Source: an uncultured Candidatus Saccharibacteria bacterium
GTDB lineage: Bacteria; Patescibacteriota; Saccharimonadia; Saccharimonadales; CAZNVG01
NCBI GenBank assembly: GCA_964576475.1
Contig: CAZNVG010000001.1
Location: 8,367 to 72,366 of the forward strand
Length of the DNA stretch: 64,000 nucleotides
Direction of reading: 5' to 3'
Shown: piece by piece, positions 14,581-31,443 of the stretch
Position numbering within the stretch: the first letter of the stretch is position 1
How the letters are laid out: every line of letters starts with the position of its first letter
Notes under the pieces: generated by a model
What the model saw: only the letters and a program-made list of their open reading frames with translations
Told to the model about the DNA's origin: nothing
Databases searched by the model: none
Position numbers and translations under genes: made by a program

Positions 14581-15084
14581 ATGTTTCTGTTGTATCATGC
14601 TTGCATGAACGAGGACTATCAACCCAACTATCAAAACACATCGCGTAAGGTCGCGAGAGCCGTGCTGCTGCATGATAGCCATGTTCTTCTCATCAAGCGT
14701 CATACGGCAACCCAAGATTTCTACGCTTTTCCTGGCGGCGGCGTTGAGGCTAATGAATCATTTGAGCACGCGGTTGTTCGAGAGCTTAACGAGGAGGCCT
14801 CAATTATCGCAGCAGTAGAGCGTTTAGTGTATGTTTACACATCTCCCAAATGGGGAAAACAACAGTTCTACAAGTGTCGGTATATTTCTGGTGAACCCTT
14901 GCTACGAGCAGATAGTATTGAAGCTCAAATACAGGAACATGAGGAAAACAGTTTTACCCCAATGTGGGTGGATGTTGCGTCTTTGTCTAGTCTCGCTGTG
15001 TATCCAAGCCCTCTTGTAGACCAGCTCATAAAAGATATTGCCTCCGGGTTTGCAGCTAAAGTTCAGCATTTTACCGACGACTAA
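14581..15084 (+). CDS. NUDIX hydrolase
   Basis: Nudix box GGGVEANESFEHAVVRELNEEASI. Confidence 0.7.
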   Translation: MFLLYHACMNEDYQPNYQNTSRKVARAVLLHDSHVLLIKRHTATQDFYAFPGGGVEANESFEHAVVRELNEEASIIAAVERLVYVYTSPKWGKQQFYKCRYISGEPLLRADSIEAQIQEHEENSFTPMWVDVASLSSLAVYPSPLVDQLIKDIASGFAAKVQHFTDD

Positions 15085-18152: not shown

Positions 18153-18818
18153 CTATAGCTTTATTTTTGCTGAAGGATTGTTTCGAACAACGCCCATGAC
18201 ACCAAGTTTTTGCAGTCTACGTACTCGTGTAGGACTGTCGACGGTGTAGACAAACACCTCTAGACCTTGCATTTTTGCGCGCATTAAGGCGAGTCGATTA
18301 GCGATTACCCACTTAAGGGCAAGATAGCTAAGACCAAGTTTTTGCTGTTCTCTTGCACTTACAAACGGCCATTTGTTACGTAGTAGCGCTCGTGGTATTT
18401 CTGGCAACTCTTTCTTTGTCTCTTCAAGTGCCTGCGGCAGAAATGAGCTGATAATGACTGTAGCAGTCGTTGCGTCCAAGCACTCTCGTACTAACGGAGT
18501 GCAACCGGTCTCCTTAAGTTCAATGTTTACTCCAGTTCTGGTGCCGATTGTACGAAGAGCACTTTTGAGGTCCACACTGTGTGTGCCATCTAATCTTGGC
18601 ATTTCGACAATTTCAGCCAAACGCAGTGAACGTATAGGTTTGTCTATTCCATATAAGCGCTTCAAATCAGGATCATGCATAACAATAAGCTGGTCATCCA
18701 AGGTTTTGCGTACATCTAGCTCTACAAAGTCCACGCCCGCTGATATTGCTCTCTCAAAACCGAGCAAAGTATTTTCCGCCACTTCACCCATAGCACCACG
18801 ATGTCCAAATATCTTCAT
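18153..18818 (-). CDS. glycerophosphodiester phosphodiesterase family protein
   Basis: MKIFGHRGAMGEVAENTLLGFERAISAGVDFVELDVRKTLDDQLIVMHD is a GDPD signature. Start moved to the internal ATG. Confidence 0.7.
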   Translation of the reverse strand: MKIFGHRGAMGEVAENTLLGFERAISAGVDFVELDVRKTLDDQLIVMHDPDLKRLYGIDKPIRSLRLAEIVEMPRLDGTHSVDLKSALRTIGTRTGVNIELKETGCTPLVRECLDATTATVIISSFLPQALEETKKELPEIPRALLRNKWPFVSAREQQKLGLSYLALKWVIANRLALMRAKMQGLEVFVYTVDSPTRVRRLQKLGVMGVVRNNPSAKIKL

Positions 18819-18866
18819 TACTTGTAAGTGTAGTACACTTAAGTAAGAAATAAGAGGAGAAAACCT

Positions 18867-19394
18867 GTGCCAGATTTCAATGCCGTACTTAATCCCGGTG
18901 ACTACGAAAACAACATCATACACACTGTCATTGAGATACCTAAAGGTTCCAGTCACAAAATAGAATGGAACCGTGAGAAAGCTGCCTTTCAACTTGATCG
19001 TGTTGAACCAGCCATATTTGCAAAGCCCACAAACTACGGATTTATTCCTCAGACATTAGATGAAGATGGTGATGAACTTGATACTCTAGTTATTACAGAT
19101 GAGCCACTGCCTACGGGCATCTTCCTTGAAGCAAAAGTTATCGGAGTATTAAACTTTGAAGACGATGGCGAGATGGATCACAAAATAGTATGCGTACCGG
19201 CAGACGATAGAAACACAGGCGATGCTATCGCATCACTAGATGACATATCAGACGCACTCAAAAACCAGATAGCACACCACTTTACACACTACAAAGATCT
19301 CAAAAAACCAGGCAGCACAAAAGTATTAGGTTGGGGCGACATTGAGGAAGCAAAAAAGATTATTGCTGAGTGTATAGATCGTTACGTTGCATAA
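18867..19394 (+). CDS. ppa: inorganic pyrophosphatase
   Basis: Family I PPase pattern (IEIPKGS..K.E, DGDELD). GTG start after AAGAGGAG. Confidence 0.8.
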   Translation: MPDFNAVLNPGDYENNIIHTVIEIPKGSSHKIEWNREKAAFQLDRVEPAIFAKPTNYGFIPQTLDEDGDELDTLVITDEPLPTGIFLEAKVIGVLNFEDDGEMDHKIVCVPADDRNTGDAIASLDDISDALKNQIAHHFTHYKDLKKPGSTKVLGWGDIEEAKKIIAECIDRYVA

Positions 19395-19454: not shown

Positions 19455-19483
19455 TTAACGCTTAAGCGTAAGCATGATACAAT
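19455..19483 (+). promoter_or_regulatory. sigma70-like promoter (TTAACG, 17-nt spacer, TGaTACAAT) containing the 12-bp palindrome ACGCTTAAGCGT
   Basis: Seen directly, upstream of gap and the long sugar-phosphate operon. Confidence 0.4.
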
Positions 19484-19509
19484 TTCCTTGATATAAATCG
19501 GGGGGATTG

Positions 19510-20526
19510 ATGAAAGTTACAGTAGCAATTAATGGATTCGGAAGAATAGGACGAAACGCATTTAAGATTGCTTTTGATCGAGCTGATCTTGAGATTGTTG
19601 CGATTAATGACCTTACAGATACAAAAACGCTGGCGCACCTACTAAAGCACGATAGTAACTACGGTGCATATGATCATGAGGTCACCTACGACGACACGAA
19701 TATAGTCGTTGATGGACAAAGAATAAAAGTCTTGGCTGAAAAAGATCCAAAAAACCTACCCTGGAAAGATTTAAATGTTGATATCGTCATTGAATCTACT
19801 GGATTCTTTACCAAGCACGATCAACTGCTGATGCATATTGAGGCAGGTGCTAAACGTGTCATCCTCTCAGCCCCCGAGAAAGACGACACTCACCACGACA
19901 CGTATGTTATGGGCGTCAATGAGCAAGATCTAAAGAAGGACCATCAGATAATTTCAAACGCCAGTTGTACTACAAACTGTATTACACCTGTTATGGGTGT
20001 GATGGAGTCGGTTTTTGGAATTGAAAAAGCAATGATGACAACTGTGCATAGTTACACTGCGTCACAAAGACTACAGGATGCTCCAGCTAAAGATCTTAGG
20101 GAGGCACGAAACGCAGCCGAGAACATTGTGCCCACCACTACGGGGGCGAGTATAGCCGCAGGTTTAGCGCTGCCGGCTTTAAAGGGTATCTTTGGCGGCA
20201 TGAGTGTACGTGTACCCACTCCAGTTGTGTCACTGAGCGACTTCGTCATCATCACTAAGCGTAATGTTACGGTAGATGAAGTAAAAAAAGCGTTTAAAGA
20301 CGCAGCTGCACAACCTTACTACCAAGGAATACTTGCGGCTACTGAAGAAGAATTGGTGAGCAGTGACTACATAGGTAACTCACACAGCGCTACTGTTGAT
20401 TTACCATTAACTGCGGTCGTTGGCGGCAACATGGTGAAGATCGTAGCTTGGTACGATAACGAATGGGGCTATAGTAACCGACTCGTTGAAATGGTTGCTG
20501 AAGCAGGCCGACAACTACAAAGCTGA
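19510..20526 (+). CDS. gap: glyceraldehyde-3-phosphate dehydrogenase
   Basis: NGFGRIGR N-terminus and catalytic SNASCTTNC. Confidence 0.9.
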   Translation: MKVTVAINGFGRIGRNAFKIAFDRADLEIVAINDLTDTKTLAHLLKHDSNYGAYDHEVTYDDTNIVVDGQRIKVLAEKDPKNLPWKDLNVDIVIESTGFFTKHDQLLMHIEAGAKRVILSAPEKDDTHHDTYVMGVNEQDLKKDHQIISNASCTTNCITPVMGVMESVFGIEKAMMTTVHSYTASQRLQDAPAKDLREARNAAENIVPTTTGASIAAGLALPALKGIFGGMSVRVPTPVVSLSDFVIITKRNVTVDEVKKAFKDAAAQPYYQGILAATEEELVSSDYIGNSHSATVDLPLTAVVGGNMVKIVAWYDNEWGYSNRLVEMVAEAGRQLQS

Positions 20527-20966
20527 TGAAGATAATACTTGGATCCGACCATAACGGCTTTCACTTAAAACTCGAGCTTATGGAGTATCTTGATAAGCAT
20601 GGGTACGAGGTAGAAGATGCTGGCGATAAGGAACTGAACCCAGATGACGATTTTCCGCAGTTCGCAGCATCTGCAGTCACAAAACTTATCGGCGGCAACG
20701 ACGATGACAAGGCGATTCTGATTTGTGGATCTGGACAAGGAATGGCTATGGCAGCAAACCGCTTTACTGGCATAAGGGCAGCGCTCGTGTGGGACGAAGC
20801 ATCGGCAAAATCTTCACGTCGTGAAGACGACAGCAACGTTCTCGTCTTACCTGCGCATGTCATTGCTTCAGACACGGCGAATACTATTGTTGAGTCTTGG
20901 CTAAACACTCCGTTCGATAATGCGCCGCGTAGAATTCGTCGGCTCAAAGAGCTAGACAGTTTATAG
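20526..20966 (+). CDS. rpiB: ribose-5-phosphate isomerase B
   Basis: MKIILGSDHNGFHLK...ILICGSGQGMAMAANR is the RpiB/LacAB pattern. Confidence 0.85.
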   Translation: MKIILGSDHNGFHLKLELMEYLDKHGYEVEDAGDKELNPDDDFPQFAASAVTKLIGGNDDDKAILICGSGQGMAMAANRFTGIRAALVWDEASAKSSRREDDSNVLVLPAHVIASDTANTIVESWLNTPFDNAPRRIRRLKELDSL

Positions 20967-20985
20967 CAGTGCTACAATAAACTAC

Positions 20986-21612
20986 ATGGCAATTATCGCA
21001 CCCTGTATTACGGCACTTACACTAGATGACTATGCACAACAACTTGCAAAGATAGAAGCATTTGCGCAGCGCCTTCATATCGATCTAGCCGACGGTGACT
21101 TTGCGCCCGTCAGCTTAGTGCCACCACAGAACGTGCATTGGCCAAAGACTGCAACAGCTGACATACATGTCATGTATCAACAGCCCTTGTCTATTCTAGA
21201 AACGCTCATTAGCCTCCATGCCCAGACTCTTATTCTTCAAATTGAAGCTGATGATGTAATGGTTTGTCTGCAAAATCTAACACAACTTGGCGTGCGTAGA
21301 GGTCTATCACTGCTACCAGACACACCAGCCGAAGCGCTTAAACCTTTCTTGGAATTTGTGGATCATGTCTTAATTTTTAGTGGCGATCTAGGTCATTTTG
21401 GCGGCAAAGTTAATACCGCGCACTTAAGCAAAGTGGCTGAAATAAAGTCATGGCGGAGTGAACTTGAAATAGGTTGGGATGGCGGAGTGAACGCAGACAA
21501 CGCGAGGCAGCTTATGCAGGGCGGTGTCGATGTCTTAAACAGTGGCGGATTCATACAAAAGTCTGATGATCCGCAACGAGCGTACCAACAACTTGTTGAC
21601 GCCATTAGCTAG
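20986..21612 (+). CDS. rpe: ribulose-phosphate 3-epimerase-like TIM-barrel protein
   Basis: IAPCI...HIDLADGDFAP...DIHVM...WDGGV parallels the Rpe motifs. Operon context with rpiB and tkt supports the call. Confidence 0.6.
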   Translation: MAIIAPCITALTLDDYAQQLAKIEAFAQRLHIDLADGDFAPVSLVPPQNVHWPKTATADIHVMYQQPLSILETLISLHAQTLILQIEADDVMVCLQNLTQLGVRRGLSLLPDTPAEALKPFLEFVDHVLIFSGDLGHFGGKVNTAHLSKVAEIKSWRSELEIGWDGGVNADNARQLMQGGVDVLNSGGFIQKSDDPQRAYQQLVDAIS

Positions 21613-21672
21613 CTCACTAACTCTTTTTGCTTATGGTACTATTAATTTCAGACGAGGGGGTTTTACGTAAAC

Positions 21673-22527
21673 ATGCAAAAACTAACACTGCAGGAGTTAG
21701 AACTACAGGCGAATGATATTCGCGAAAGTATCATCAAGATGCTCGTCGCGGCCGGCAGCGGACATTCTGCCGGGCCACTAGGTCTCGCTGATATATTCGC
21801 AGCACTGTATTTTGATGTTATGAATCACGATCCTAAGAACCCAGAGTGGGAGGATCGAGACATTTTAATACTTAGTAATGGTCACTGTGCGCCAGTACGC
21901 TACGCCGCAATGGCTCATGCCGGCTTTTTCCCACTCGAGGAGCTTAAGACCCTGCGAAAATTTGGATCAAGACTTCAAGGTCATCCTGAGAGAACCAAGC
22001 TACCTGGGCTCGAAACAACCAGTGGACCACTCGGATCTGGGTTGTCGCAAGCTTCTGGAATGGCTCGAGCGCTGCAGATCGACAATGACCACCATCGTTG
22101 GGTTTACTGTATCTGTGGCGACGGTGAACTAGATGAGGGAAATATTTGGGAGGCTGCGATGTTTGCAGCCAAGTATCGACTTTATAACCTCACACTCATA
22201 ATCGATAGAAACAATATCCAGATTGATGGGCCTACCGAGCATGTTATGCCACTCGAAGATCTAAAACGGAAGTGGGACGCCTTTGGTTGGCACGTGCTTG
22301 AAATCGACGGCAACAATATTGAGGCCATCATTGATGCATGCAGTATGAGCCGTGCTGTCGTGGAGAAGCCAACGGTTATCATTGCGCACACTATTCCTGG
22401 TAAAGGAGTGGATTTCATGGAGTTTGACTATCGTTGGCATGGTAAGCCGCCCAAGCCGGACGAAGCGAAAAAGGCACTACATGAACTGCGCACTTTAGAA
22501 GGTAAGATACGATCGGAGCACCAATGA
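21673..22527 (+). CDS. transketolase, N-terminal subunit (split tkt)
   Basis: TPP-binding GHSAGPLGLADIFAALY...GDGELDEGNIWEA. Confidence 0.85.
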   Translation: MQKLTLQELELQANDIRESIIKMLVAAGSGHSAGPLGLADIFAALYFDVMNHDPKNPEWEDRDILILSNGHCAPVRYAAMAHAGFFPLEELKTLRKFGSRLQGHPERTKLPGLETTSGPLGSGLSQASGMARALQIDNDHHRWVYCICGDGELDEGNIWEAAMFAAKYRLYNLTLIIDRNNIQIDGPTEHVMPLEDLKRKWDAFGWHVLEIDGNNIEAIIDACSMSRAVVEKPTVIIAHTIPGKGVDFMEFDYRWHGKPPKPDEAKKALHELRTLEGKIRSEHQ

Positions 22528-23483
22528 GCCTCATACACACGCTAAACGATGACCTTCCTACTGAGCCAATACGAGCGGGTTTTGGACGAGGGTTGCTAGC
22601 TGCTGGTAAGGAAAATGACTCAATCGTCGCGCTGTGTGCGGATCTTACAGAGTCCACGCAAATGCACCTATTTGCAGAAGAATTTCCCGAGCGTTTTGTA
22701 GAAATAGGTGTTGCTGAACAAAACCTTGCAACCGTAGCTGCAGGAATGGCAGCAATGGACAAAATTCCTTTCTGTAGTTCATACGCAGCGTTTAGCCCAG
22801 GTAGAAACTGGGAACAGATTAGAACAACTGCATGTCTTAACGATCGACCGGTAAAGATTATAGGCTCGCACGCCGGAGTCTCGGTTGGTCCGGATGGCGC
22901 AACTCACCAAATGTTAGAAGATATTGCTCTGATGCGGGCACTCCCGAATATGGTTGTTATTGCTCCGTGTGATGCAGTAGAGGCCGAGAAGGCCACATTA
23001 GCAATGGCAGGTGATTCGCGACCTAACTACATGCGCTTAGCGCGCGAGGCTACGCCCGTTTTTACAAAAAAGGACACACCATTTGATCTCAACAAAGCAC
23101 AAGTGTTCAAAGAGGGCAGCGATCTTACTATCATTGCAACAGGCGCAATGACATATCAGGCCCTCATGGCTGCGGAACATCTTAAAAAAGATGGCATAAG
23201 TGCGGAAGTGGTACATGTCGCTGTAATCAAACCACTAGATAGTACGACTATACTAGCCAGTGCCAAAAAGACAGGTAGGGTAATTACTTGTGAAGAACAC
23301 CAAATAACCGGAGGACTTGGTGGAGCTATTGCCGAGCTTCTGAGTGAAAAACATCCAACACGCATTCGCAGAATCGGTATACCAGATGTCTTTGGTGAAT
23401 CGGGTACTACACAAGAGCTATTTGAGCACTTTGGCCTTACTGGCAAACAGATTGCTGCCGTCGCTCACGAAATCTTAGACTAA
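22524..23483 (+). CDS. transketolase, C-terminal subunit (split tkt)
   Basis: Pyrimidine-binding and C-terminal transketolase domains. Start overlaps the N-terminal subunit stop. Confidence 0.85.
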   Translation: MSLIHTLNDDLPTEPIRAGFGRGLLAAGKENDSIVALCADLTESTQMHLFAEEFPERFVEIGVAEQNLATVAAGMAAMDKIPFCSSYAAFSPGRNWEQIRTTACLNDRPVKIIGSHAGVSVGPDGATHQMLEDIALMRALPNMVVIAPCDAVEAEKATLAMAGDSRPNYMRLAREATPVFTKKDTPFDLNKAQVFKEGSDLTIIATGAMTYQALMAAEHLKKDGISAEVVHVAVIKPLDSTTILASAKKTGRVITCEEHQITGGLGGAIAELLSEKHPTRIRRIGIPDVFGESGTTQELFEHFGLTGKQIAAVAHEILD

Positions 23484-23534
23484 AATACTACCTCTCCGTG
23501 GTACCATAAGCTTAAGAATTAACAGGGAATTACC

Positions 23535-24449
23535 ATGCCACTGACACTAAGAGAAATACGAGAAAACTGCCAAAAAGCTCGAGAGACGATGAAGCGAGCA
23601 CGTGACGAACACTTTGCGCTTGGCGCATTTAACCTTGATAACCAAGAAACGCTAATCGCGGTAGCACGAGCAGCTGCCGCTAAAAAGGCGCCACTAATGG
23701 TTGAAGTTTCTCAGGGCGAAGTAGAGGTCCTCGGACTCGAAAACGTGCGCGATATGGTCGAAAACTACAAGGCGCAGTATGGCATTGAGATGTATATTAA
23801 CCTTGACCATAGTCCATCTGTCGAAAATGCAATCGCAGGCATTGAAGCTGGATTCGAGTTTATCCATATAGACATAAGCCAAGCAAACCATGACGCTACC
23901 CACGAAGAAATAGTTAGCAAAACACGTGAAGTGGTTGAGGCAGCCAAACTGACCGGTGCACTCGTCGAGAGTGAACCACATTACTTTGGTGGCGGCTCTA
24001 ACAAGTTCACTGAAGCTTTTGATCCAGAAGAAATTAAAAAGTTCTTTAGTACTCCAGAGGGCGCGCGTTCCTTCGTAGAAGAAACTGGCATAGATACCTT
24101 TGCTGCCAGTGTCGGCAATTTGCATGGTCAGTACCCGGTACCTAAGGAGTTGCATCTAGATTTACTACAACAAATTAGAGATGCACTGCAGTGCAACATT
24201 AGCTTGCATGGAGGCTCCGGCACGCCAGGACATTTCTTTGAGGAAGCTGTTCGAATTGGTGTTAATAAGATAAACATCAACTCCGATATGCGCGTAGCTT
24301 ACAGAGACACACTTGAAAAGGTGCTCGCAGAAAACAAAACAGAATATGCCGTCGTCAAGCTCATGGGCACAGTTATCAGCGAAGTTCAAAAAGTCGTGGA
24401 GAGCAAGCTAGATATGTTTCAGTCGAGCGGGAAGGCTCGTGTTTACTAG
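23535..24449 (+). CDS. fba: class II fructose-bisphosphate (ketose-bisphosphate) aldolase
   Basis: FbaA/KbaY-like pattern (NLDHS, HGGSG). Confidence 0.8.
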   Translation: MPLTLREIRENCQKARETMKRARDEHFALGAFNLDNQETLIAVARAAAAKKAPLMVEVSQGEVEVLGLENVRDMVENYKAQYGIEMYINLDHSPSVENAIAGIEAGFEFIHIDISQANHDATHEEIVSKTREVVEAAKLTGALVESEPHYFGGGSNKFTEAFDPEEIKKFFSTPEGARSFVEETGIDTFAASVGNLHGQYPVPKELHLDLLQQIRDALQCNISLHGGSGTPGHFFEEAVRIGVNKININSDMRVAYRDTLEKVLAENKTEYAVVKLMGTVISEVQKVVESKLDMFQSSGKARVY

Positions 24450-24452
24450 TCC

Positions 24453-25412
24453 ATGGGTATAAAAGTTGTGAGTATTGGGGCAGCGGTTCAGGATGTGTTT
24501 TTGCAAGGCAAAATTTTTACGCCCAAGACTGAATCTGATGGCTCACAAGTTGAAGAGTTCGTACTCGGAAGCAAGAACGACATCGAAGGCGTTGTCTACA
24601 GCACAGGGGGTGGTGCTACTAACGCGGCAGTCACCTTTGCACGGCAAGGACTTGAGTCTTGTTATATGGGGAAAGTAGGTAATGACATGGCGGGTCAGGC
24701 CGTTAGGCACGACCTAGAAAAAGAATCCGTCGATACAACTCTTATGGGACAATCGACAAAATTCGGTACAGGGTATTCAGCGCTATTATTAGCACCTAAT
24801 GGAGAAAGAACAATTCTTACCTATAGAGGTGCAAGTACACACTACGAAATAACTAAAGACGACCTAACCCATGTCGAGGCTGACTGGTTCTATATAAGTT
24901 CCCTTGAAGGTAATTTCGAAGTAGTTGAGACATTGTTGCTTTATGCAGCTGAAAAAGGAATTAAAGTCGCATGGAATCCTGGCAAGAAAGAGTTAGACAA
25001 TAAGGATGAAATACTGACGTTGCTGCCCCACGTGACTATCCTTAGTCTCAATAAAGAAGAGATGCAGCTTTTATTTACAGGGGATAGTATTGAAACTCTA
25101 GCTCAGGCCGCTGCACAGAAAGTACAGTTTGCAGTCGTAACAGATGGGCCGCGCGGTCTGGCTGCTGCGAGTAACAACGAAACGCTAAAAGCAGGTATGT
25201 ATGAAGACGTACCCGTCGTAGACCGGACAGGAGCAGGTGATGCGTTTTGCTCAGGTTTTAGTGCGGCAATAATGCAGGGGCAGTCACTGAGAGACGCGAT
25301 ACTACTGGGTAGCGCTAATTCAACGAGTGTTGTGAGTAAAATTGGTGCCAAAGCCGGAATTTTGCAAAAAGATGCTCAACTGCACGACATGCCAATAGAG
25401 GCGGTTAATTAG
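24453..25412 (+). CDS. PfkB-family sugar kinase (ribokinase or phosphofructokinase-like)
   Basis: GGGATNAAV near the N-terminus and DRTGAGDAFCSGF near the C-terminus are PfkB signatures. Confidence 0.75.
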   Translation: MGIKVVSIGAAVQDVFLQGKIFTPKTESDGSQVEEFVLGSKNDIEGVVYSTGGGATNAAVTFARQGLESCYMGKVGNDMAGQAVRHDLEKESVDTTLMGQSTKFGTGYSALLLAPNGERTILTYRGASTHYEITKDDLTHVEADWFYISSLEGNFEVVETLLLYAAEKGIKVAWNPGKKELDNKDEILTLLPHVTILSLNKEEMQLLFTGDSIETLAQAAAQKVQFAVVTDGPRGLAAASNNETLKAGMYEDVPVVDRTGAGDAFCSGFSAAIMQGQSLRDAILLGSANSTSVVSKIGAKAGILQKDAQLHDMPIEAVN

Positions 25413-25453: not shown

Positions 25454-26695
25454 ATGTGCAGAATTATTGCTGAATTATTACAAGCCAAACAACCAGAATT
25501 TAAACTAGCCCTTCAACAGCTCGAGCAATCAAGCGGACGACCTGGAGTCGATCTGCAGCTATTAGGCAACATACTCGAGTCATCGTTTAGGAAGATTCAA
25601 GAGCTTGGCTTAGATCCCAACGACACTACTGGGCCCGAGCTCTATCATGCACTCAAAGGTCTTATGAAAAAACACGACCAGCATCTGGCACGAAAAATTG
25701 GCGGTAAGAGTACAGACAAGCCAAGCACACTGATACCGTTAATCAAGCAAGCTGTAGAGAAAGTCGACATTCCCAAAACCTGTTGGGTGCTTAAGAAATC
25801 TGTTGCTCGCCAAATGTTACGCGATAATCCCCCGCCGCAGATTATGAAACTCATGGGCTATCGATCCATAGAGCAGCTTCTCAAGAAGGAAGAATTATTT
25901 GAAGTATACGGAGCACTTCGTTTTGCAGAAGGACCTGAGTGGCTCAACCACTTCGACGAGCAGTACAAAAACCTAAAACCGAGCGACTTCGAGACTCGTC
26001 ATATCGAAATTGTTGTCATGCCCGCTGAGAGATGGGCCGATATCTGCGAGCCCTTCATACATAAAAAGAAACATAATATTACACATCTGAAGGAACTTGG
26101 TGTCATTTTAATGCTCCCAATCAAGAAAGAGCACATGCCAGGCATAGTTTTATTCGCAACAAGTTTGCTATTCCACTACATTAACGAGATAAGGCTCTAT
26201 AGTTCTTTCTTTAAGCTGCAACAGGTCAAAAAGAATTTCGCTGAGATATTTATTGAGACCCTTATTGCCGATCCCGCTAAGCACGCAGTCATGTCGGGTA
26301 ATCATATACACTGGCGCGTTATCCAGCGTTACTTCGGAAAACTCAAGAACGAGTATCATCCAGAAATATTCGAGCCGCACGTACAACCCGAGGACCTCCA
26401 TTGGCGTAAAGCCGAGGAAGCACTGTATGCTATTGATCCTGAACTCGAGTACTGGAAGAACATGGACTATGTGGGTCGAATGTATGAGGACGGCCCGGTT
26501 ACATTCAACATGATGGATATCGCAGCTAGTTATGCCAACGGAACTCCGTACGAAGAACGCGAGCTATATCATTTCCGTGAGTCACTTTGGAACGAAATCT
26601 TTATCAGATACATGGGCCAGAAAACTCTTGAGTCCCAAATTTTAAAGCAGTTAGATAACGACATGATTGCTCCAGAGAAGCTTGTACCGGCATGA
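25454..26695 (+). CDS. hypothetical protein (413 aa, soluble), translationally coupled to the downstream LOG-family gene
   Basis: No recognisable family. Sits inside the sugar-phosphate operon. Its stop overlaps the next ATG in ATGA. Confidence 0.5.
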   Translation: MCRIIAELLQAKQPEFKLALQQLEQSSGRPGVDLQLLGNILESSFRKIQELGLDPNDTTGPELYHALKGLMKKHDQHLARKIGGKSTDKPSTLIPLIKQAVEKVDIPKTCWVLKKSVARQMLRDNPPPQIMKLMGYRSIEQLLKKEELFEVYGALRFAEGPEWLNHFDEQYKNLKPSDFETRHIEIVVMPAERWADICEPFIHKKKHNITHLKELGVILMLPIKKEHMPGIVLFATSLLFHYINEIRLYSSFFKLQQVKKNFAEIFIETLIADPAKHAVMSGNHIHWRVIQRYFGKLKNEYHPEIFEPHVQPEDLHWRKAEEALYAIDPELEYWKNMDYVGRMYEDGPVTFNMMDIAASYANGTPYEERELYHFRESLWNEIFIRYMGQKTLESQILKQLDNDMIAPEKLVPA

Positions 26696-27306
26696 AATAC
26701 TCGATTTGCGTCTCTGGCGCCGCTTCAGGCAAGACCGTAGAACTCGCCCATGACATGGCGAGCAAGTTAGGTCAGATCATTGCAAAACGCGGCCATATTC
26801 TAACTACGGGAGCAACGGTAGGGCTTCCGTATTATGCGGCTGTTGCTGCGAGCAAGGCCGGTGGTATGAGTATTGGCTTTTCACCAGCCTCAAGCCTCCG
26901 TGAGCACGCTTTCAAATACAATCTGCCCATTGGTGTCTATGACTTCATAAACTTCACAGGCATGCACTATGTTGGACGAGACGTACATCTCGTACAGTCT
27001 AGTGACGCAATCATTACAGTCGGCGGCCGATTCGGCAGTTTGCATGAATTCACAACCGCTCTTGAATCATATATGCCGTGCGGCGTACTGCTTGGAAGCG
27101 GGGGGACTGCAGACGTCATTCCCGAACTTATGAATAGACTTGAGTACGAAAGTAAAAAACTAGTGATTTTTGATACCGATCCTGAAGAATTAGTAGATAA
27201 AATTATCAAAAAACTGGATGAAGAGTTTAAAGACATAGATACTCATGCACTGAAAGCTCGTTGGGCAGTTCCTGAAAAGAAAGAATCTTCAGGCCATAAA
27301 GGCTAG
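26692..27306 (+). CDS. LOG/TIGR00725-family Rossmann-fold protein (putative nucleotide 5'-monophosphate phosphoribohydrolase)
   Basis: MKYSICVSGAASG...TTGATVGLPYYAA...VGGRFGSLHEFTTAL parallels the LOG motifs GGGxGxM...PGGxGTxxE. Confidence 0.5.
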   Translation: MKYSICVSGAASGKTVELAHDMASKLGQIIAKRGHILTTGATVGLPYYAAVAASKAGGMSIGFSPASSLREHAFKYNLPIGVYDFINFTGMHYVGRDVHLVQSSDAIITVGGRFGSLHEFTTALESYMPCGVLLGSGGTADVIPELMNRLEYESKKLVIFDTDPEELVDKIIKKLDEEFKDIDTHALKARWAVPEKKESSGHKG

Positions 27307-27327: not shown

Positions 27328-29292
27328 ATGCCGCGATTTGAGCTCAATGCACAATACAAACCCACAGGAGATCAACCGAGCGCTATAGCGCAGCTTAATG
27401 CTGGATTGGAGTCTGGACAGAGAGAACAGGTGTTGCTCGGTGTAACTGGCTCGGGCAAGACCTTTACTATGGCTAATTTAATTGCCAAACGACAGAAGCC
27501 GACATTAGTACTAAGCCACAATAAAACTCTAGCAGCACAGCTGTATAACGAATTCAAAGAATTCTTTCCAAACAACTCAGTTCATTATTTTGTTAGCTAT
27601 TTTGATTATTACCAGCCAGAAGCATACGTGGCACGCTCAGATACCTACATAGAAAAAGATTCACAAATAAACGAAGAGATCGATCGACTTAGACACGCGG
27701 CAACCTCTGCGCTACTTACACAAAAAGACGTCATAATTGTAGCCAGCGTAAGTTGCATTTATGGAATTGGCTCAGTTGAAGACTACGACTCGTTAGCGGT
27801 CAGTATAGAACGGGGTGAAAAACGACGTCGAGATAAGTTGCTTCGTCACCTGTCAGACATCCAGTATCAACGAAATGACGTAGACTTTCATAGGTCAACA
27901 TTTCGAGTTCGCGGTGATGTGGTCGATATTTTCCCAGCTGGCGAACAATCAGCATTTCGTGTGGAGTTCTTCGGCGACGAGGTTGATAGAATTACACAAA
28001 TCAACCCTCTAACTGGTGAGATACTTGGCGATAAGCAGTCAATTAAAGTATTCCCAGGAAGTCACTACGTAACACCACAAGAAAAACTAAAAGACGCCAT
28101 CGATAAAATACGACAAGAGTTAGCATTACGATTAACATACTTTCGTTCGCAGGGATTGCTACTAGAAGCACAAAGACTAGAACAACGAACAAACTTTGAT
28201 TTAGAAATGCTTGAGGAGACCGGTTTTGTCAAAGGTATTGAAAACTATTCTAGGTACTTAACCAACCGCGAACCTGGTGAGCAGCCGGCGACTCTGATGG
28301 ACTATTTTCCTGATGACTATCTGATGTTTATTGATGAATCACATATGACACTACCGCAACTAAGGGGTATGTATAACGGGGATAGAGCTCGCAAAGAAGT
28401 ATTAGTTGAACACGGGTTCCGATTACCAAGCGCACTCGACAACAGACCTCTTATGTTCCAGGAATTTGAAAGACACATTAATCAAGTGGTGTACGTGTCA
28501 GCGACACCGAGCGAGTACGAACTTTCTCGGGGAGGCAAACCAGCTCAGCAAGTCATTCGCCCAACGGGTCTGCTCGATCCTGTGATAGAAATTAGACCAG
28601 TTAAAGGTCAGGTTGATGACTTACTAGCGGAGATCAGGTCTACCGTCGCGAAACATCAACGCGTCCTCGTCACAACGCTCACCAAACGTATGGCGGAAGA
28701 CCTAAGTGAATATCTGTCTGAGCTTAAAGTAAAAGTCCAATATCTACATTCTGACGTAGACACTATGGATAGAACAGACATATTACGAGACCTTAGACTT
28801 GGAGTGTACGACGTACTTATAGGCATAAACTTGCTTCGTGAAGGACTTGATCTGCCTGAAGTCTCGCTTGTCGCTATCCTTGATGCGGATAAAGAAGGTT
28901 TCCTACGCAGCGAGCAGGCACTTATACAGACTGTTGGTCGAGCAGCTAGGCATCAGGAAGGCCGTGTCATCATGTATGCCGACGTCATCACAGGATCAAT
29001 GAAGCGCACCATAGACGAGACAAACCGTCGTCGACTTATTCAGGACAAGCATAATAAAGACCACGACATAACACCTACGGGCGTTTTTAAATCCATTGGC
29101 GATGGCCTGCCAAGAGCTAAGAAAGATGAAGACGAGCCAGCTCGTATTGACCTTAAGAAAATACCTAAGGACGAATACACACACCTAGTGCGCGAACTAT
29201 CCTCACAAATGGAACTGGCAGCAGCAAATCTTGAGTTTGAGAAAGCAGCAGAGTTGCGCGACATAATTGACGACATCAAGTCTAAAATGTAG
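27328..29292 (+). CDS. uvrB: excinuclease ABC subunit B
   Basis: Walker [11 protein letters not shown], helicase motifs, and a C-terminal UVR domain ([10 protein letters not shown]). Confidence 0.9.
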
Positions 29293-29629: not shown

Positions 29630-31042
29630 ATGAACACCATACTTATTGCCGATATTCAAAGTGCTCTGCAATCTGGAACAACTGTACGCACGATTGTCGA
29701 ACAATCAATTGCTCGAGCTAAGGCGGATGAAACTCACGCGTTGTTAGAGATAACAGAAGACTACGCACTTGCACAGGCAGATAAAGTCGACAAGGCTCTT
29801 CAAAATGGTGAAAACTTTGGCCCGCTTGCAGGTGTTCCCTTTGTCGCGAAAGACAATTTCCTAACATTTGCCGGACATACCACTGCCGCGAGCCATATAC
29901 TCGAAAACTTCCAAGCACCCTACCAGTCAACCGCAATACAAAAGCTAGAAGATGCCGGCGCCATACTCATAGGTAAGGCAAATCTTGATGCGTTCGCCCA
30001 TGGAAGCAGTACCGAGAACAGCGATTTCGGAGCTACAAAGAACCCATCAAATTTGAGTAAAGTACCCGGTGGTTCTTCTGGTGGGTCTGTCGCAGCAGTT
30101 GCCAGTGGCATCGTGCCGTTTGCTTTAGGTACAGACACTGGTGGATCTGTTCGACTACCCGCAAGCTTCTGCGGAGTCGTTGGGTTGAAGCCAACGTATG
30201 GTCTCATCTCAAGATTTGGCGTTATAGCAATGGCAAGCTCTACGGACTGCATTGGACCCATTGCGAACTCCTCAGGTGATGTCGCATTAGTGCTTGACAT
30301 ACTTAGTGGACGCGATCGAAGAGATGGCACAACGATAGACCGTGATGAAGCAAGCTATGTAAGCAAGCAAGAAACTATGAAAGGTAAGCGCTTTGGACTC
30401 ATTAAACAGTTCATGGATGCCGGACTAGCGCAGCCTGTTCGCGAAGCAATTGAGAAGGCGTGCAAAACAATTGAAAACGCCGGCGGCGAAGTGATTACGA
30501 TAGACCTACCTTCACTAGAATTAGCGCTTGCGTGCTACTACATCATCGTACCCGCAGAGATTAGCTCTAACCTTAATAGATACGACGGCATCCGCTATGG
30601 GCTCAGTGAGGACTCGGCCACATCACTCGATGAAACGTATGAACTCTCGCGATCTATTGGCTTCAATACGGAGAATAAGCGCCGTATTATGATTGGCACC
30701 TTTGTCACAAGTAGTGGCTATCATGATGCGTACTATCTCAAAGCTCAAACAGTACGGAGCAAGCTTATTGCTGAATTTACGAGCGCATTTGCGACTGTAG
30801 ATTTTCTCATTGGCCCCGTAGCTGCGAATACAGCTTTTGATTTAGGCTCCAAATCAAATGATCCTTTGGAAATGTATCTAACCGATATTATGACTGTAGC
30901 CGCAAATCTTGTCGGTATACCTAGTGTCAGCCTGCCGATTCCTGTCACAGACATGCCGGTAGGCCTGCAGGTTATGGCGCAACAGCGACATGATCGAAGC
31001 TTATTAGCAGTCGCTGGAGAACTTGAAAAGGAGTTAGCATGA
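29630..31042 (+). CDS. gatA: Asp/Glu-tRNA amidotransferase subunit A
   Basis: Amidase signature GGSSGGSVAAVASG...GTDTGGSVRLPA. Confidence 0.9.
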   Translation: MNTILIADIQSALQSGTTVRTIVEQSIARAKADETHALLEITEDYALAQADKVDKALQNGENFGPLAGVPFVAKDNFLTFAGHTTAASHILENFQAPYQSTAIQKLEDAGAILIGKANLDAFAHGSSTENSDFGATKNPSNLSKVPGGSSGGSVAAVASGIVPFALGTDTGGSVRLPASFCGVVGLKPTYGLISRFGVIAMASSTDCIGPIANSSGDVALVLDILSGRDRRDGTTIDRDEASYVSKQETMKGKRFGLIKQFMDAGLAQPVREAIEKACKTIENAGGEVITIDLPSLELALACYYIIVPAEISSNLNRYDGIRYGLSEDSATSLDETYELSRSIGFNTENKRRIMIGTFVTSSGYHDAYYLKAQTVRSKLIAEFTSAFATVDFLIGPVAANTAFDLGSKSNDPLEMYLTDIMTVAANLVGIPSVSLPIPVTDMPVGLQVMAQQRHDRSLLAVAGELEKELA

Positions 31043-31443
31043 TCATATCGCTTATCGCAATCGTACTACTTGGAGTATTAGCATTGCTAGCAGGCTACGG
31101 TGCATCAAGACTTAGGCGCACCGGCCTTGACCGAAGCTACTACCAGAAACGTTGGGATGAAATACAGTCTCTGCTCAAGTCTGCCGAGGGGCAACAGCTC
31201 TCGATAATTGAAGCAGACAAATTATTGGACGAAGCTCTCAGAAAGCTACGATTTTCCGGCAAGACAATGGGTGAAAGACTCGTATCGGCACAACGCAACT
31301 TTAGCAACCCCAACAACGTATGGACTGCACATAAGTTAAGAAATCGGGTTGTACATGAAGCAAGTGTTAAATTACAGAAGAGACAACTACAAGCCGCACT
31401 GGCTGCAATCCGCGTCGCTTTGAAGGATCTGGGAGCGCTATGA
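31039..31443 (+). CDS. hypothetical N-terminally anchored protein inserted between gatA and gatB
   Basis: 134-aa ORF that overlaps the gatA stop and the gatB start. N-terminal TM. No recognisable family. Confidence 0.45.
   Translation: MIISLIAIVLLGVLALLAGYGASRLRRTGLDRSYYQKRWDEIQSLLKSAEGQQLSIIEADKLLDEALRKLRFSGKTMGERLVSAQRNFSNPNNVWTAHKLRNRVVHEASVKLQKRQLQAALAAIRVALKDLGAL

Follow-up and report, generated by a model that had tools for sequence, protein, structure and literature searches.

Neither Saccharibacteria nor other Patescibacteria can make nucleotides, and they depend on building blocks taken from their hosts; how these bacteria gain carbon and energy is a subject of ongoing work. Among enzymes that could act on scavenged nucleotides are those of the LOG family, and we know of no stand-alone LOG that needs a partner. 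LOG and PpnN enzymes hydrolyze the N-glycosidic bond of nucleoside 5′-monophosphates to give a base and ribose-5-phosphate, and canonical LOGs release modified adenines from ribotides (PMC6717881). In Escherichia coli PpnN, the PAG1 and PAG2 domains flank a LOG-like core and open its active site upon binding of (p)ppGpp (PMC6717881; bioRxiv 10.1101/2025.04.13.648610), and catalysis involves a ribose-binding Arg241 and a water-activating Glu264 (bioRxiv 10.1101/2025.04.13.648610). Here we analyzed a 64,000-nucleotide (nt) stretch of contig CAZNVG010000001.1 from an uncultured Candidatus Saccharibacteria bacterium, referred to as the window herein, in which a 413-residue protein, termed X413, is encoded directly before a 204-residue LOG-superfamily protein (Table 1). 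We found that X413 is a genuine, not yet characterized LOG partner and that the two proteins very probably work together, possibly in turning scavenged nucleotides into ribose-5-phosphate.

The evidence for the partnership comes from comparison of 80 loci taken from species-representative genomes and four more obtained by exact-protein look-up. The loci span about 17 kb each, and statements of presence or absence hold at the level of the locus; two exact peptide patterns matched 341 genomes, which is a lower bound. The order ppa-gap-rpiB-rpe-tktN-tktC-fba-pfkB-X413-LOG-uvrB-gatC-gatA is almost universal among the 80 loci. Since unrelated genes share this synteny, gene order alone is weak evidence, and the spacing between genes says more. 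As measured in 70 loci, the X413-LOG junction is 100 nt or shorter in 87%, like the junctions of the subunit pairs tktN-tktC (81%) and gatC-gatA (94%), while the flanking junctions reach this only in 55% (pfkB-X413) and 46% (LOG-uvrB). Overlap or a spacing of up to 10 nt (-4, -1, or 0 to 10 nt) was found for X413 and LOG in 38 to 57 of 69 loci, a range set by the choice of start codon. Where enough sequence was available, the 84 loci carry exactly one X413 and one LOG-superfamily open reading frame (ORF) each, and neither the window nor the loci examined contain second or partial copies of either gene. Exceptions are mostly contig ends (loci L006, L030, and L067 in our numbering, the last in the clade with divergent LOG genes). 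Partner and context are unchanged even in an X413 member that shares only 26% identity with the window protein.

The LOG partner comes in two forms, which are mutually exclusive across the 84 loci. The usual one is LDcluster4, the type found in the window, while a canonical LOG adjoins X413 or is fused to it in 9 loci. All seven loci that were sequenced on both sides and lack LDcluster4 carry a canonical LOG of about 240 residues that matches PF03641 with 100 to 109 bits. It is located divergently upstream of X413 in L047, L048, L056, L063, and L065, and downstream of X413 in L064 (+ strand) and L079 (− strand). In a neighbor-joining tree of X413, used as a rough guide only, the canonical-LOG loci occupy three to four separate places, which suggests that LOG was replaced repeatedly. 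No position of X413 was found to vary in step with the LOG type. Lastly, two 658-residue proteins join an N-terminal X413 to a canonical LOG through a linker of about 45 residues. These fusions come from different assemblies, one of them on an 809-kb contig, and share only 57% identity from end to end, with the linker counted in. The N-terminal helix of the fused LOG matches that of the free LOG of L064, which makes L064 the obvious precursor arrangement. Taken together, the 84 loci, the fusions, and the LOG replacements indicate that the pairing, which the original prediction had left to comparison across genomes, is conserved in relatives beyond what synteny alone accounts for.

The relationship between the two proteins is asymmetric. 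In the cultured Southlakia epibionticum, a transketolase-fba-pfkB run (pfkB being SEML1_0547) is followed 9 nt downstream by a PF18306 "LOG family protein" (SEML1_0546) (PMC10633639), after which come five small ORFs and then uvrB (PMC10633639, Tables S1/S2); the small ORFs fill about 2.7 kb between LOG and uvrB. As pfkB and LOG abut here without X413, the LOG protein does not need X413. Because LOG stands without X413, and X413 is almost never found without LOG beside it, it follows that the function of X413 depends on LOG and not vice versa. As an observation apart, S. epibionticum has a second LDcluster4/TIGR00725 paralog that adjoins a protein with a phosphoribosyltransferase domain (SEML1_0423/0424; PMC10633639, Table S2), another association of this SLOG subfamily with nucleotide metabolism.

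Assignment of the window LOG to the SLOG superfamily is clear, since it scores 99.9 bits on PF18306 (LDcluster4, SLOG cluster 4), where the cut-off is 26.3, and its residues 2-167 cover positions 1-150 of the 151 in the model. Its nearest entries in the PDB are Thermotoga TM1055 (1RCU, 1.7e-8), 6Y01, and the molybdenum cofactor carrier protein of Chlamydomonas (2IZ5, 6.2e-7); canonical LOGs in the PDB match less well than these three. Upon alignment, the segment R96...GGRFGSLHE119 falls on the R...PGGFGTMDE segment of a canonical LOG. The motif is a variant of PGGxGTxxE in which Pro is replaced, the second Gly is Arg, and Thr has become Ser. Neither R96 nor E119 varies among 70 Saccharibacteria orthologs, so the loss of the catalytic Glu that would have spoken against the original prediction is not seen, and the spacing of the two residues equals that of Arg241 and Glu264 in PpnN. 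The window LOG has an 11-residue insertion in the region of the canonical LPxEQ Glu (Glu223 in PpnN, a second acidic residue, which contacts the ribose hydroxyls), and this region does not align; the insertion itself contains E71, which is invariant in the 70 orthologs. As the nearest solved relatives come without demonstrated nucleosidase activity, we infer the chemistry of the window LOG, and read it as a predicted N-ribohydrolase because the Arg/Glu pair is kept and because bona fide PF03641 LOGs have repeatedly taken its place. Our search of the literature on LDcluster4, TIGR00725, and nucleoside catabolism in Saccharibacteria returned nothing specific.

Both X413 and the LOG ORF are real genes. 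X413 has 3093 relatives in a 90%-clustered database, nearly all of them about 410 residues long and either unnamed or labeled "hypothetical", and a profile search returned 907 clusters at 50% identity, 461 of which scored below 1e-30. The nearest relatives of X413, and of the locus as a whole, are found in metagenome-assembled genomes of Candidatus Saccharibacteria and Saccharimonadales, and two ENA metagenome samples (ERZ22666005 and ERZ22666148) have yielded assemblies with the identical protein. X413 matched zero families in Pfam-A, NCBIfam, PHROGs, and PADLOC. When 62 diverse members were scanned against Pfam at E ≤ 10, only scattered noise in single members appeared, and profiles run against all PDB sequences had a designed helical protein as their sole match. 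The description of the 413-residue protein as uncharacterized was thus borne out by Pfam and NCBIfam, and these two databases and the PDB sequence profiles likewise gave no homology to a housekeeping protein. We rejected an origin of X413 in a defense system or a phage, as there was no PADLOC or PHROG match and no fold match in BFVD; a tblastn search that covered 50,697 phage records and 72,556 plasmid records also gave no match to X413.

The AlphaFold2 model of X413, computed from a 62-sequence alignment, is confident (predicted local distance difference test (pLDDT) 90.8, predicted template modeling score (pTM) 0.89). The modeled chain begins with a helical region, continues into a central α/β domain of five strands, and ends in a C-terminal region made up mostly of helices. 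We compared the fold by Foldseek against the PDB and BFVD only. This comparison, which the original prediction had named as a way to place the protein, gave no match in the PDB (best E 0.32, TM score ∼0.1) and none among the viral models of BFVD. When residues 100-270 were modeled alone, confidence rose further (pLDDT 96.5, pTM 0.90), and the best PDB match of the isolated domain still had E = 2.3 and a TM score of at most 0.22. A Pol-β-type nucleotidyltransferase fold, with a β-α-β-β-α-β-β core and a DxD/E motif on strand 2, had been considered for this domain on the basis of its strand order, a D178-x-E180 motif on a strand, and non-significant matches to TUTases. Since the isolated model has no nucleotidyltransferase match of any weight by Foldseek, we rejected this idea at the sensitivity of Foldseek. 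One X413 homolog, P0121 (582 residues, from a single Logan contig), is preceded within its ORF by a "mini" copy that joins the opening ∼75 residues of the family profile to its closing ∼70. The arrangement hints at a single structural unit formed by the N- and C-terminal helices of X413, with the central domain as an insertion in it; a mis-joined gene call is another possible explanation.

Residues conserved across the whole X413 family are mostly charged or aromatic. Those in the central domain are K114, S138, K144, E159, W163, D178-F-E180, R182, E214, G216, and K254; those outside it are E24, D33, D54, E62, W287, H309, D314, W334, N352, D355, E381, R385, and Y386. Among closer, Saccharimonadales-type relatives, conservation peaks in the nearly invariant stretch of residues 286-318 (HWRVIQRYFGK...PHVQPEDLHWR). 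Regular secondary structure is missing from much of this stretch, which is modeled with the lowest confidence in the chain (pLDDT 70-84), and it is identical whichever LOG type is the partner. We consider residues 286-318 a candidate ligand or partner site.

We propose that X413 and the LOG downstream of it would make up a single functional two-gene module specific to Saccharibacteria. The LOG partner would cleave nucleoside 5′-monophosphates, or a derivative of them, to free base and ribose-5-phosphate. X413, dependent on LOG activity, would most likely be an enzyme or a ligand-handling protein of unrecognized fold that handles the nucleotide stream shared with LOG at the step immediately preceding or following it, for instance by generating or presenting the monophosphate. 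The ribose-5-phosphate released could then enter the RpiB, Rpe, transketolase, aldolase, and GAPDH reactions encoded upstream, and the result would be a route from nucleotides to central carbon in nucleotide-scavenging epibionts. Such a feed is chemically sensible, and it fits both the abutment of pfkB and LOG in S. epibionticum and the predicted pfkB-type phosphofructokinase beside fba in TM7x. The salvage role is plausible, the link to the pentose-phosphate genes being drawn from gene position and LOG chemistry. We give this reading as a whole, with LOG as N-ribohydrolase and X413 as sequential enzyme or ligand-handling protein in a frame that includes ribose-5-phosphate salvage, a probability of roughly 45%.

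Several observations weigh against it. The window LOG stays under the cut-off of PF03641 (21.8 versus 27) and, although TIGR00725 is its best NCBIfam match, under that cut-off as well (72.4 versus 106.9); TIGR00730 is further off (40.6 versus 96.35). Judged by these scores and the NCBI criterion, it is a relative of TIGR00725 and not a member. The closest solved relatives include a molybdenum cofactor carrier protein and proteins with no assigned function, and we know of no LDcluster4 protein with demonstrated activity. X413 for its part has no recognizable catalytic motif or fold, and several histidines that are invariant in close relatives are not kept in the wider family. At the level of the locus, L068 (a single 5-kb contig) has an X413 with no LOG beside it, the whole region is syntenic including the unrelated uvrB and gatCAB, and by the junction frequencies above (55% versus 46%) the pair is no closer to the pentose-phosphate genes than to uvrB. 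In S. epibionticum, the published tables hold no X413-sized gene at the pfkB-LOG locus, and the LOG gene, while belonging to a core family, is non-essential in co-culture at all three time points (PMC10633639).

X413 could instead be a non-catalytic regulatory or gating subunit of LOG, a stand-alone functional analog of PAG1 and PAG2 that binds a metabolite or alarmone and switches nucleotide breakdown on or off. PpnN sets the precedent of a LOG core with accessory gating domains (PMC6717881; bioRxiv 10.1101/2025.04.13.648610), and the tight, translationally coupled X413-LOG junction resembles those of true subunit pairs. The N-terminal position of X413 in the fusions, its lack of a recognizable catalytic fold, and the largely loop-like, lower-pLDDT character of residues 286-318, as interface and ligand loops often have, would suit such a subunit too, and the persistence of LOG without X413 in S. 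epibionticum is as expected if X413 is dispensable for catalysis. However, homology of X413 to the gating domains themselves was rejected: hhalign of the 62-sequence profile against E. coli PpnN gave a probability of 0.2%, and 0 of 62 members matched DUF4478 (PAG1) or DUF3412 (PAG2), even at E ≤ 10. A specific interface is also hard to square with LOG subfamilies only ∼25% identical being swapped several times with no change in X413, and the divergent transcription of the genes in the L047 clade means that co-translational assembly is not required. That X413 does not change with LOG type fits shared chemistry better than a partner-specific interface. Because of these swaps, and because one clade is divergently transcribed, we prefer the sequential-enzyme reading and regard a gating role as tentative and on the unlikely side.

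Two further explanations question the salvage or the pairing itself. The module might serve not carbon salvage but sanitation of the nucleotide pool, removing damaged or modified nucleoside monophosphates in keeping with the neighboring uvrB, or it might produce a free-base, cytokinin-like signal, with X413 as a nucleotide-modifying enzyme and LOG releasing the modified base. The LOG-uvrB junction is short about as often as the pfkB-X413 junction, canonical LOGs do free modified adenines from ribotides, and the X413-LOG asymmetry would fit an upstream modifying enzyme whose product only LOG processes; a non-essential LOG gene in S. epibionticum agrees with this as well. Yet X413 resembles neither isopentenyltransferases nor other nucleotide-modifying families nor repair proteins, the S. 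epibionticum LOG stays beside pfkB (9 nt) while lying ∼2.7 kb from uvrB, and adjacency to uvrB is shared by the unrelated gatCAB and dnaE within a genome-wide syntenic backbone, which together leave this explanation improbable in our view. The adjacency of X413 and LOG could also be a by-product of the rigid gene order of Saccharibacteria, the function of X413 being unrelated to LOG. The 20-kb region, unrelated genes included, does keep its order in 80 genomes, and X413 is missing from one genome that contains LOG. Synteny does not, however, explain the fusion of X413 to LOG in two diverged genomes, the appearance of the other LOG subfamily in new orientations whenever LDcluster4 is missing, or an X413-LOG junction tighter than both of its flanks, and we disfavor this explanation strongly.

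The surroundings of the pair are summarized in Table 1. The 25454-27306 extent of the pair, the 413-residue length of X413, the + strand, and the ATGA stop/start overlap agree with the original prediction, as does the upstream run of glycolysis and pentose-phosphate genes, to which Pfam adds a pyrophosphatase gene (ppa) ahead of gap.

Table 1. Features of the X413-LOG locus and its flanks, in window coordinates.
Feature	Position	Strand	Remarks
gap-rpiB-rpe-tktN-tktC-fba	19507..24449	+	Lower glycolysis and non-oxidative pentose-phosphate genes; Pfam
pfkB-family sugar kinase	24453..25412	+	41-nt gap before X413; PF00294, 149.7 bits
X413 ORF	25454..26695	+	413 residues; cytosolic; unannotated Saccharibacteria family
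X413 central α/β domain	25751..26263	+	Residues 100-270; five strands and a helical insert
X413 residues 286-318, HWRVIQRYFGKLKNEYHPEIFEPHVQPEDLHWR	26309..26407	+	Contains the invariant W287
ATGA stop/start overlap, X413 to LOG	26692..26695	+	Sequence ggcATGAaa
LOG-superfamily ORF	26692..27306	+	204 residues, LDcluster4 type; predicted nucleoside-5′-monophosphate N-ribohydrolase
LOG catalytic segment R96...GGRFGSLHE119	26977..27048	+	Predicted; Arg96 and Glu119, 23 residues apart
uvrB	27328..29292	+	21 nt past the LOG stop; other boundary of the pair

By Pfam, the genes upstream start at 18867 (inorganic pyrophosphatase), 19507 (GAPDH), 20526 (RpiB), 20986 (Rpe), 21673 and 22524 (split transketolase), 23535 (class II fructose-bisphosphate aldolase), and 24453 (PfkB-family kinase). 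The pair had been placed at the end of an operon, which it is not: it lies inside a long co-directional run, with uvrB following 21 nt on, and gatC, gatA, a small ORF, gatB, and dnaE continuing on the same strand. As far as is known, uvrB is functionally unrelated to the pair. Transcription had been ascribed to a single promoter at 19455-19483, and a promoter-like site is indeed present there (9/12 matches, with a TG extension). Its being the single promoter was not demonstrated, as such sites occur at chance level in the region (17 found versus 19.1 ± 3.7 expected from shuffled sequence). No convincing terminator was found between the genes of the run, and terminator counts are likewise at chance, so that transcription units and operon boundaries cannot be set from the sequence. 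Searches of the whole window for tRNAs and Rfam families returned none of either.

The PfkB-family kinase upstream of X413 is probably a pfkB-type phosphofructokinase. The TM7x ortholog, which sits beside fba, is predicted to be a phosphofructokinase, and the pfkB gene that adjoins the pair was recently proposed as the missing phosphofructokinase of Saccharibacteria and Patescibacteria (PMC12815258). The window kinase is under all NCBIfam equivalog cut-offs, the best being ribokinase (130 bits versus 299), and the gene cluster around pfkB and fba has no transaldolase. With fba, the kinase could act on fructose 6-phosphate or sedoheptulose 7-phosphate. Related loci contain two distinct versions of pfkB, one ∼45-68% and the other ∼30-33% identical to the window kinase.

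We also noted a number of features around the pair and its neighbors. In L003-L005, ∼2-2.6 kb separate X413 from LOG, the only cases in which several genes split the pair; the inserted genes include those for a TrmB-type transcriptional regulator (PF01978) and for a 350-residue protein that belongs to no family. A recurrent family of ∼200-236 residues, absent from the window, lies between LOG (or X413) and uvrB in 9 loci (L028, 9908-10498; L033, 9866-11784, as three tandem copies; L042, L044, L047, L048, L065, L066, and L021) and has only weak, sub-threshold SpoIIIAH-like matches. Between gatA and gatB, and overlapping each by 4 nt, the window has a 134-residue ORF (31039-31443, + strand) with an N-terminal hydrophobic helix; similar ORFs of 143 and 139 residues occupy this position in L081 and L083, with no Pfam match. 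The window ORF may encode a small protein that is anchored in the membrane and whose translation is coupled to that of the gatCAB operon around it. Upstream of the cluster, a glycerophosphodiester phosphodiesterase ORF (GDPD, 18153-18992, − strand), if taken to begin at its first TTG, shares 126 nt with the beginning of the pyrophosphatase gene (18867-19394, + strand). Its true start is probably further in, since the Pfam match begins at residue 64. A NUDIX hydrolase (14581-15084, + strand) is encoded a few kb before the cluster, and in the distant locus L081 a NUDIX hydrolase (45-476) sits directly between ppa and gap; it is one more nucleotide-processing gene with loose ties to this region.

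There is a fair chance that X413 represents a new fold or enzyme family, and it could supply a new fold for structural study. The stronger claim is that X413 is both a new fold and a new enzyme family, which catalyzes or gates an undescribed step of nucleotide catabolism and passes the substrate to a LOG-type N-ribohydrolase, the two forming an entry point at which environmental Saccharibacteria would turn host-derived nucleotides into ribose-5-phosphate as a source of energy and carbon. We hold this to be doubtful; if true, it would be a third route apart from nucleoside phosphorylase routes and the AMP phosphorylase/RuBisCO pathway. In either case, X413 gives the study of nucleotide use by Saccharibacteria a tangible candidate, open to experiment, for a missing step or a point of control, and the asymmetry of the pair, with LOG standing without X413 in a host-adapted lineage, is a natural handle for comparative work. 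LOG biology, which so far comprises stand-alone cytokinin activators and PpnN with its built-in gating, would gain a two-protein form with an unrelated partner.

Among known routes for nucleotide ribose, archaea and some members of the candidate phyla radiation use AMP phosphorylase, ribose-1,5-bisphosphate isomerase, and form III RuBisCO to feed it into central carbon. The concept is alike, again in nucleotide scavengers, but the enzymes and chemistry differ entirely, namely phosphorolysis to ribose-1,5-bisphosphate followed by carboxylation, and by Pfam none of these genes is present in the window cluster. LOG is also coupled or fused to an enzyme that makes its ribotide substrate in the cytokinin modules of isopentenyltransferase and LOG, such as the Rhodococcus fas operon and the fungal IPT-LOG fusions. 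The X413 locus is similar in that a LOG is genetically coupled, and sometimes fused, to another protein; it is different in that X413 is unlike isopentenyltransferases or any P-loop fold, and there is no evident role for cytokinin synthesis in this lineage.

The closest known system is, in logic, PpnN (YgdH) and, in the sequence of the 204-residue protein, the TIGR00725/LDcluster4 group. PpnN shares with the pair a LOG-like core joined by extra non-LOG protein mass and an Arg and Glu set 23 residues apart, and its products, a base and ribose-5-phosphate, tie nucleotide pools to central metabolism, as those predicted for the pair would. Unlike PAG1 and PAG2, which flank the core within the same chain, X413 is a separate protein, is N-terminal when fused, and has no detectable homology to them. 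PpnN is proteobacterial, whereas the X413-LOG module, within the sampling so far, is seen in Saccharibacteria only. Canonical LOGs (PF03641/TIGR00730), including a longer type with an N-terminal helical extension, are the subfamily found beside or fused to X413 in the 9 loci described above, where they carry the motifs GGGxGIMEAANRGA and PGGFGT[LM]DE. The window LOG shares with them the Arg/Glu pair and membership in the SLOG fold family, which is Rossmann-like, and differs in its sub-cut-off PF03641 score, its GGRFGSLHE motif, and its insertion at the LPxEQ Glu. 1RCU and 2IZ5 are its best-matching solved structures, in line with its clear PF18306 membership, but these proteins have no established enzymatic function or bind the molybdenum cofactor. 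In contrast, the LDcluster4 proteins of Saccharibacteria keep the LOG catalytic pair and interchange with true LOGs, which points to catalysis as their probable role.

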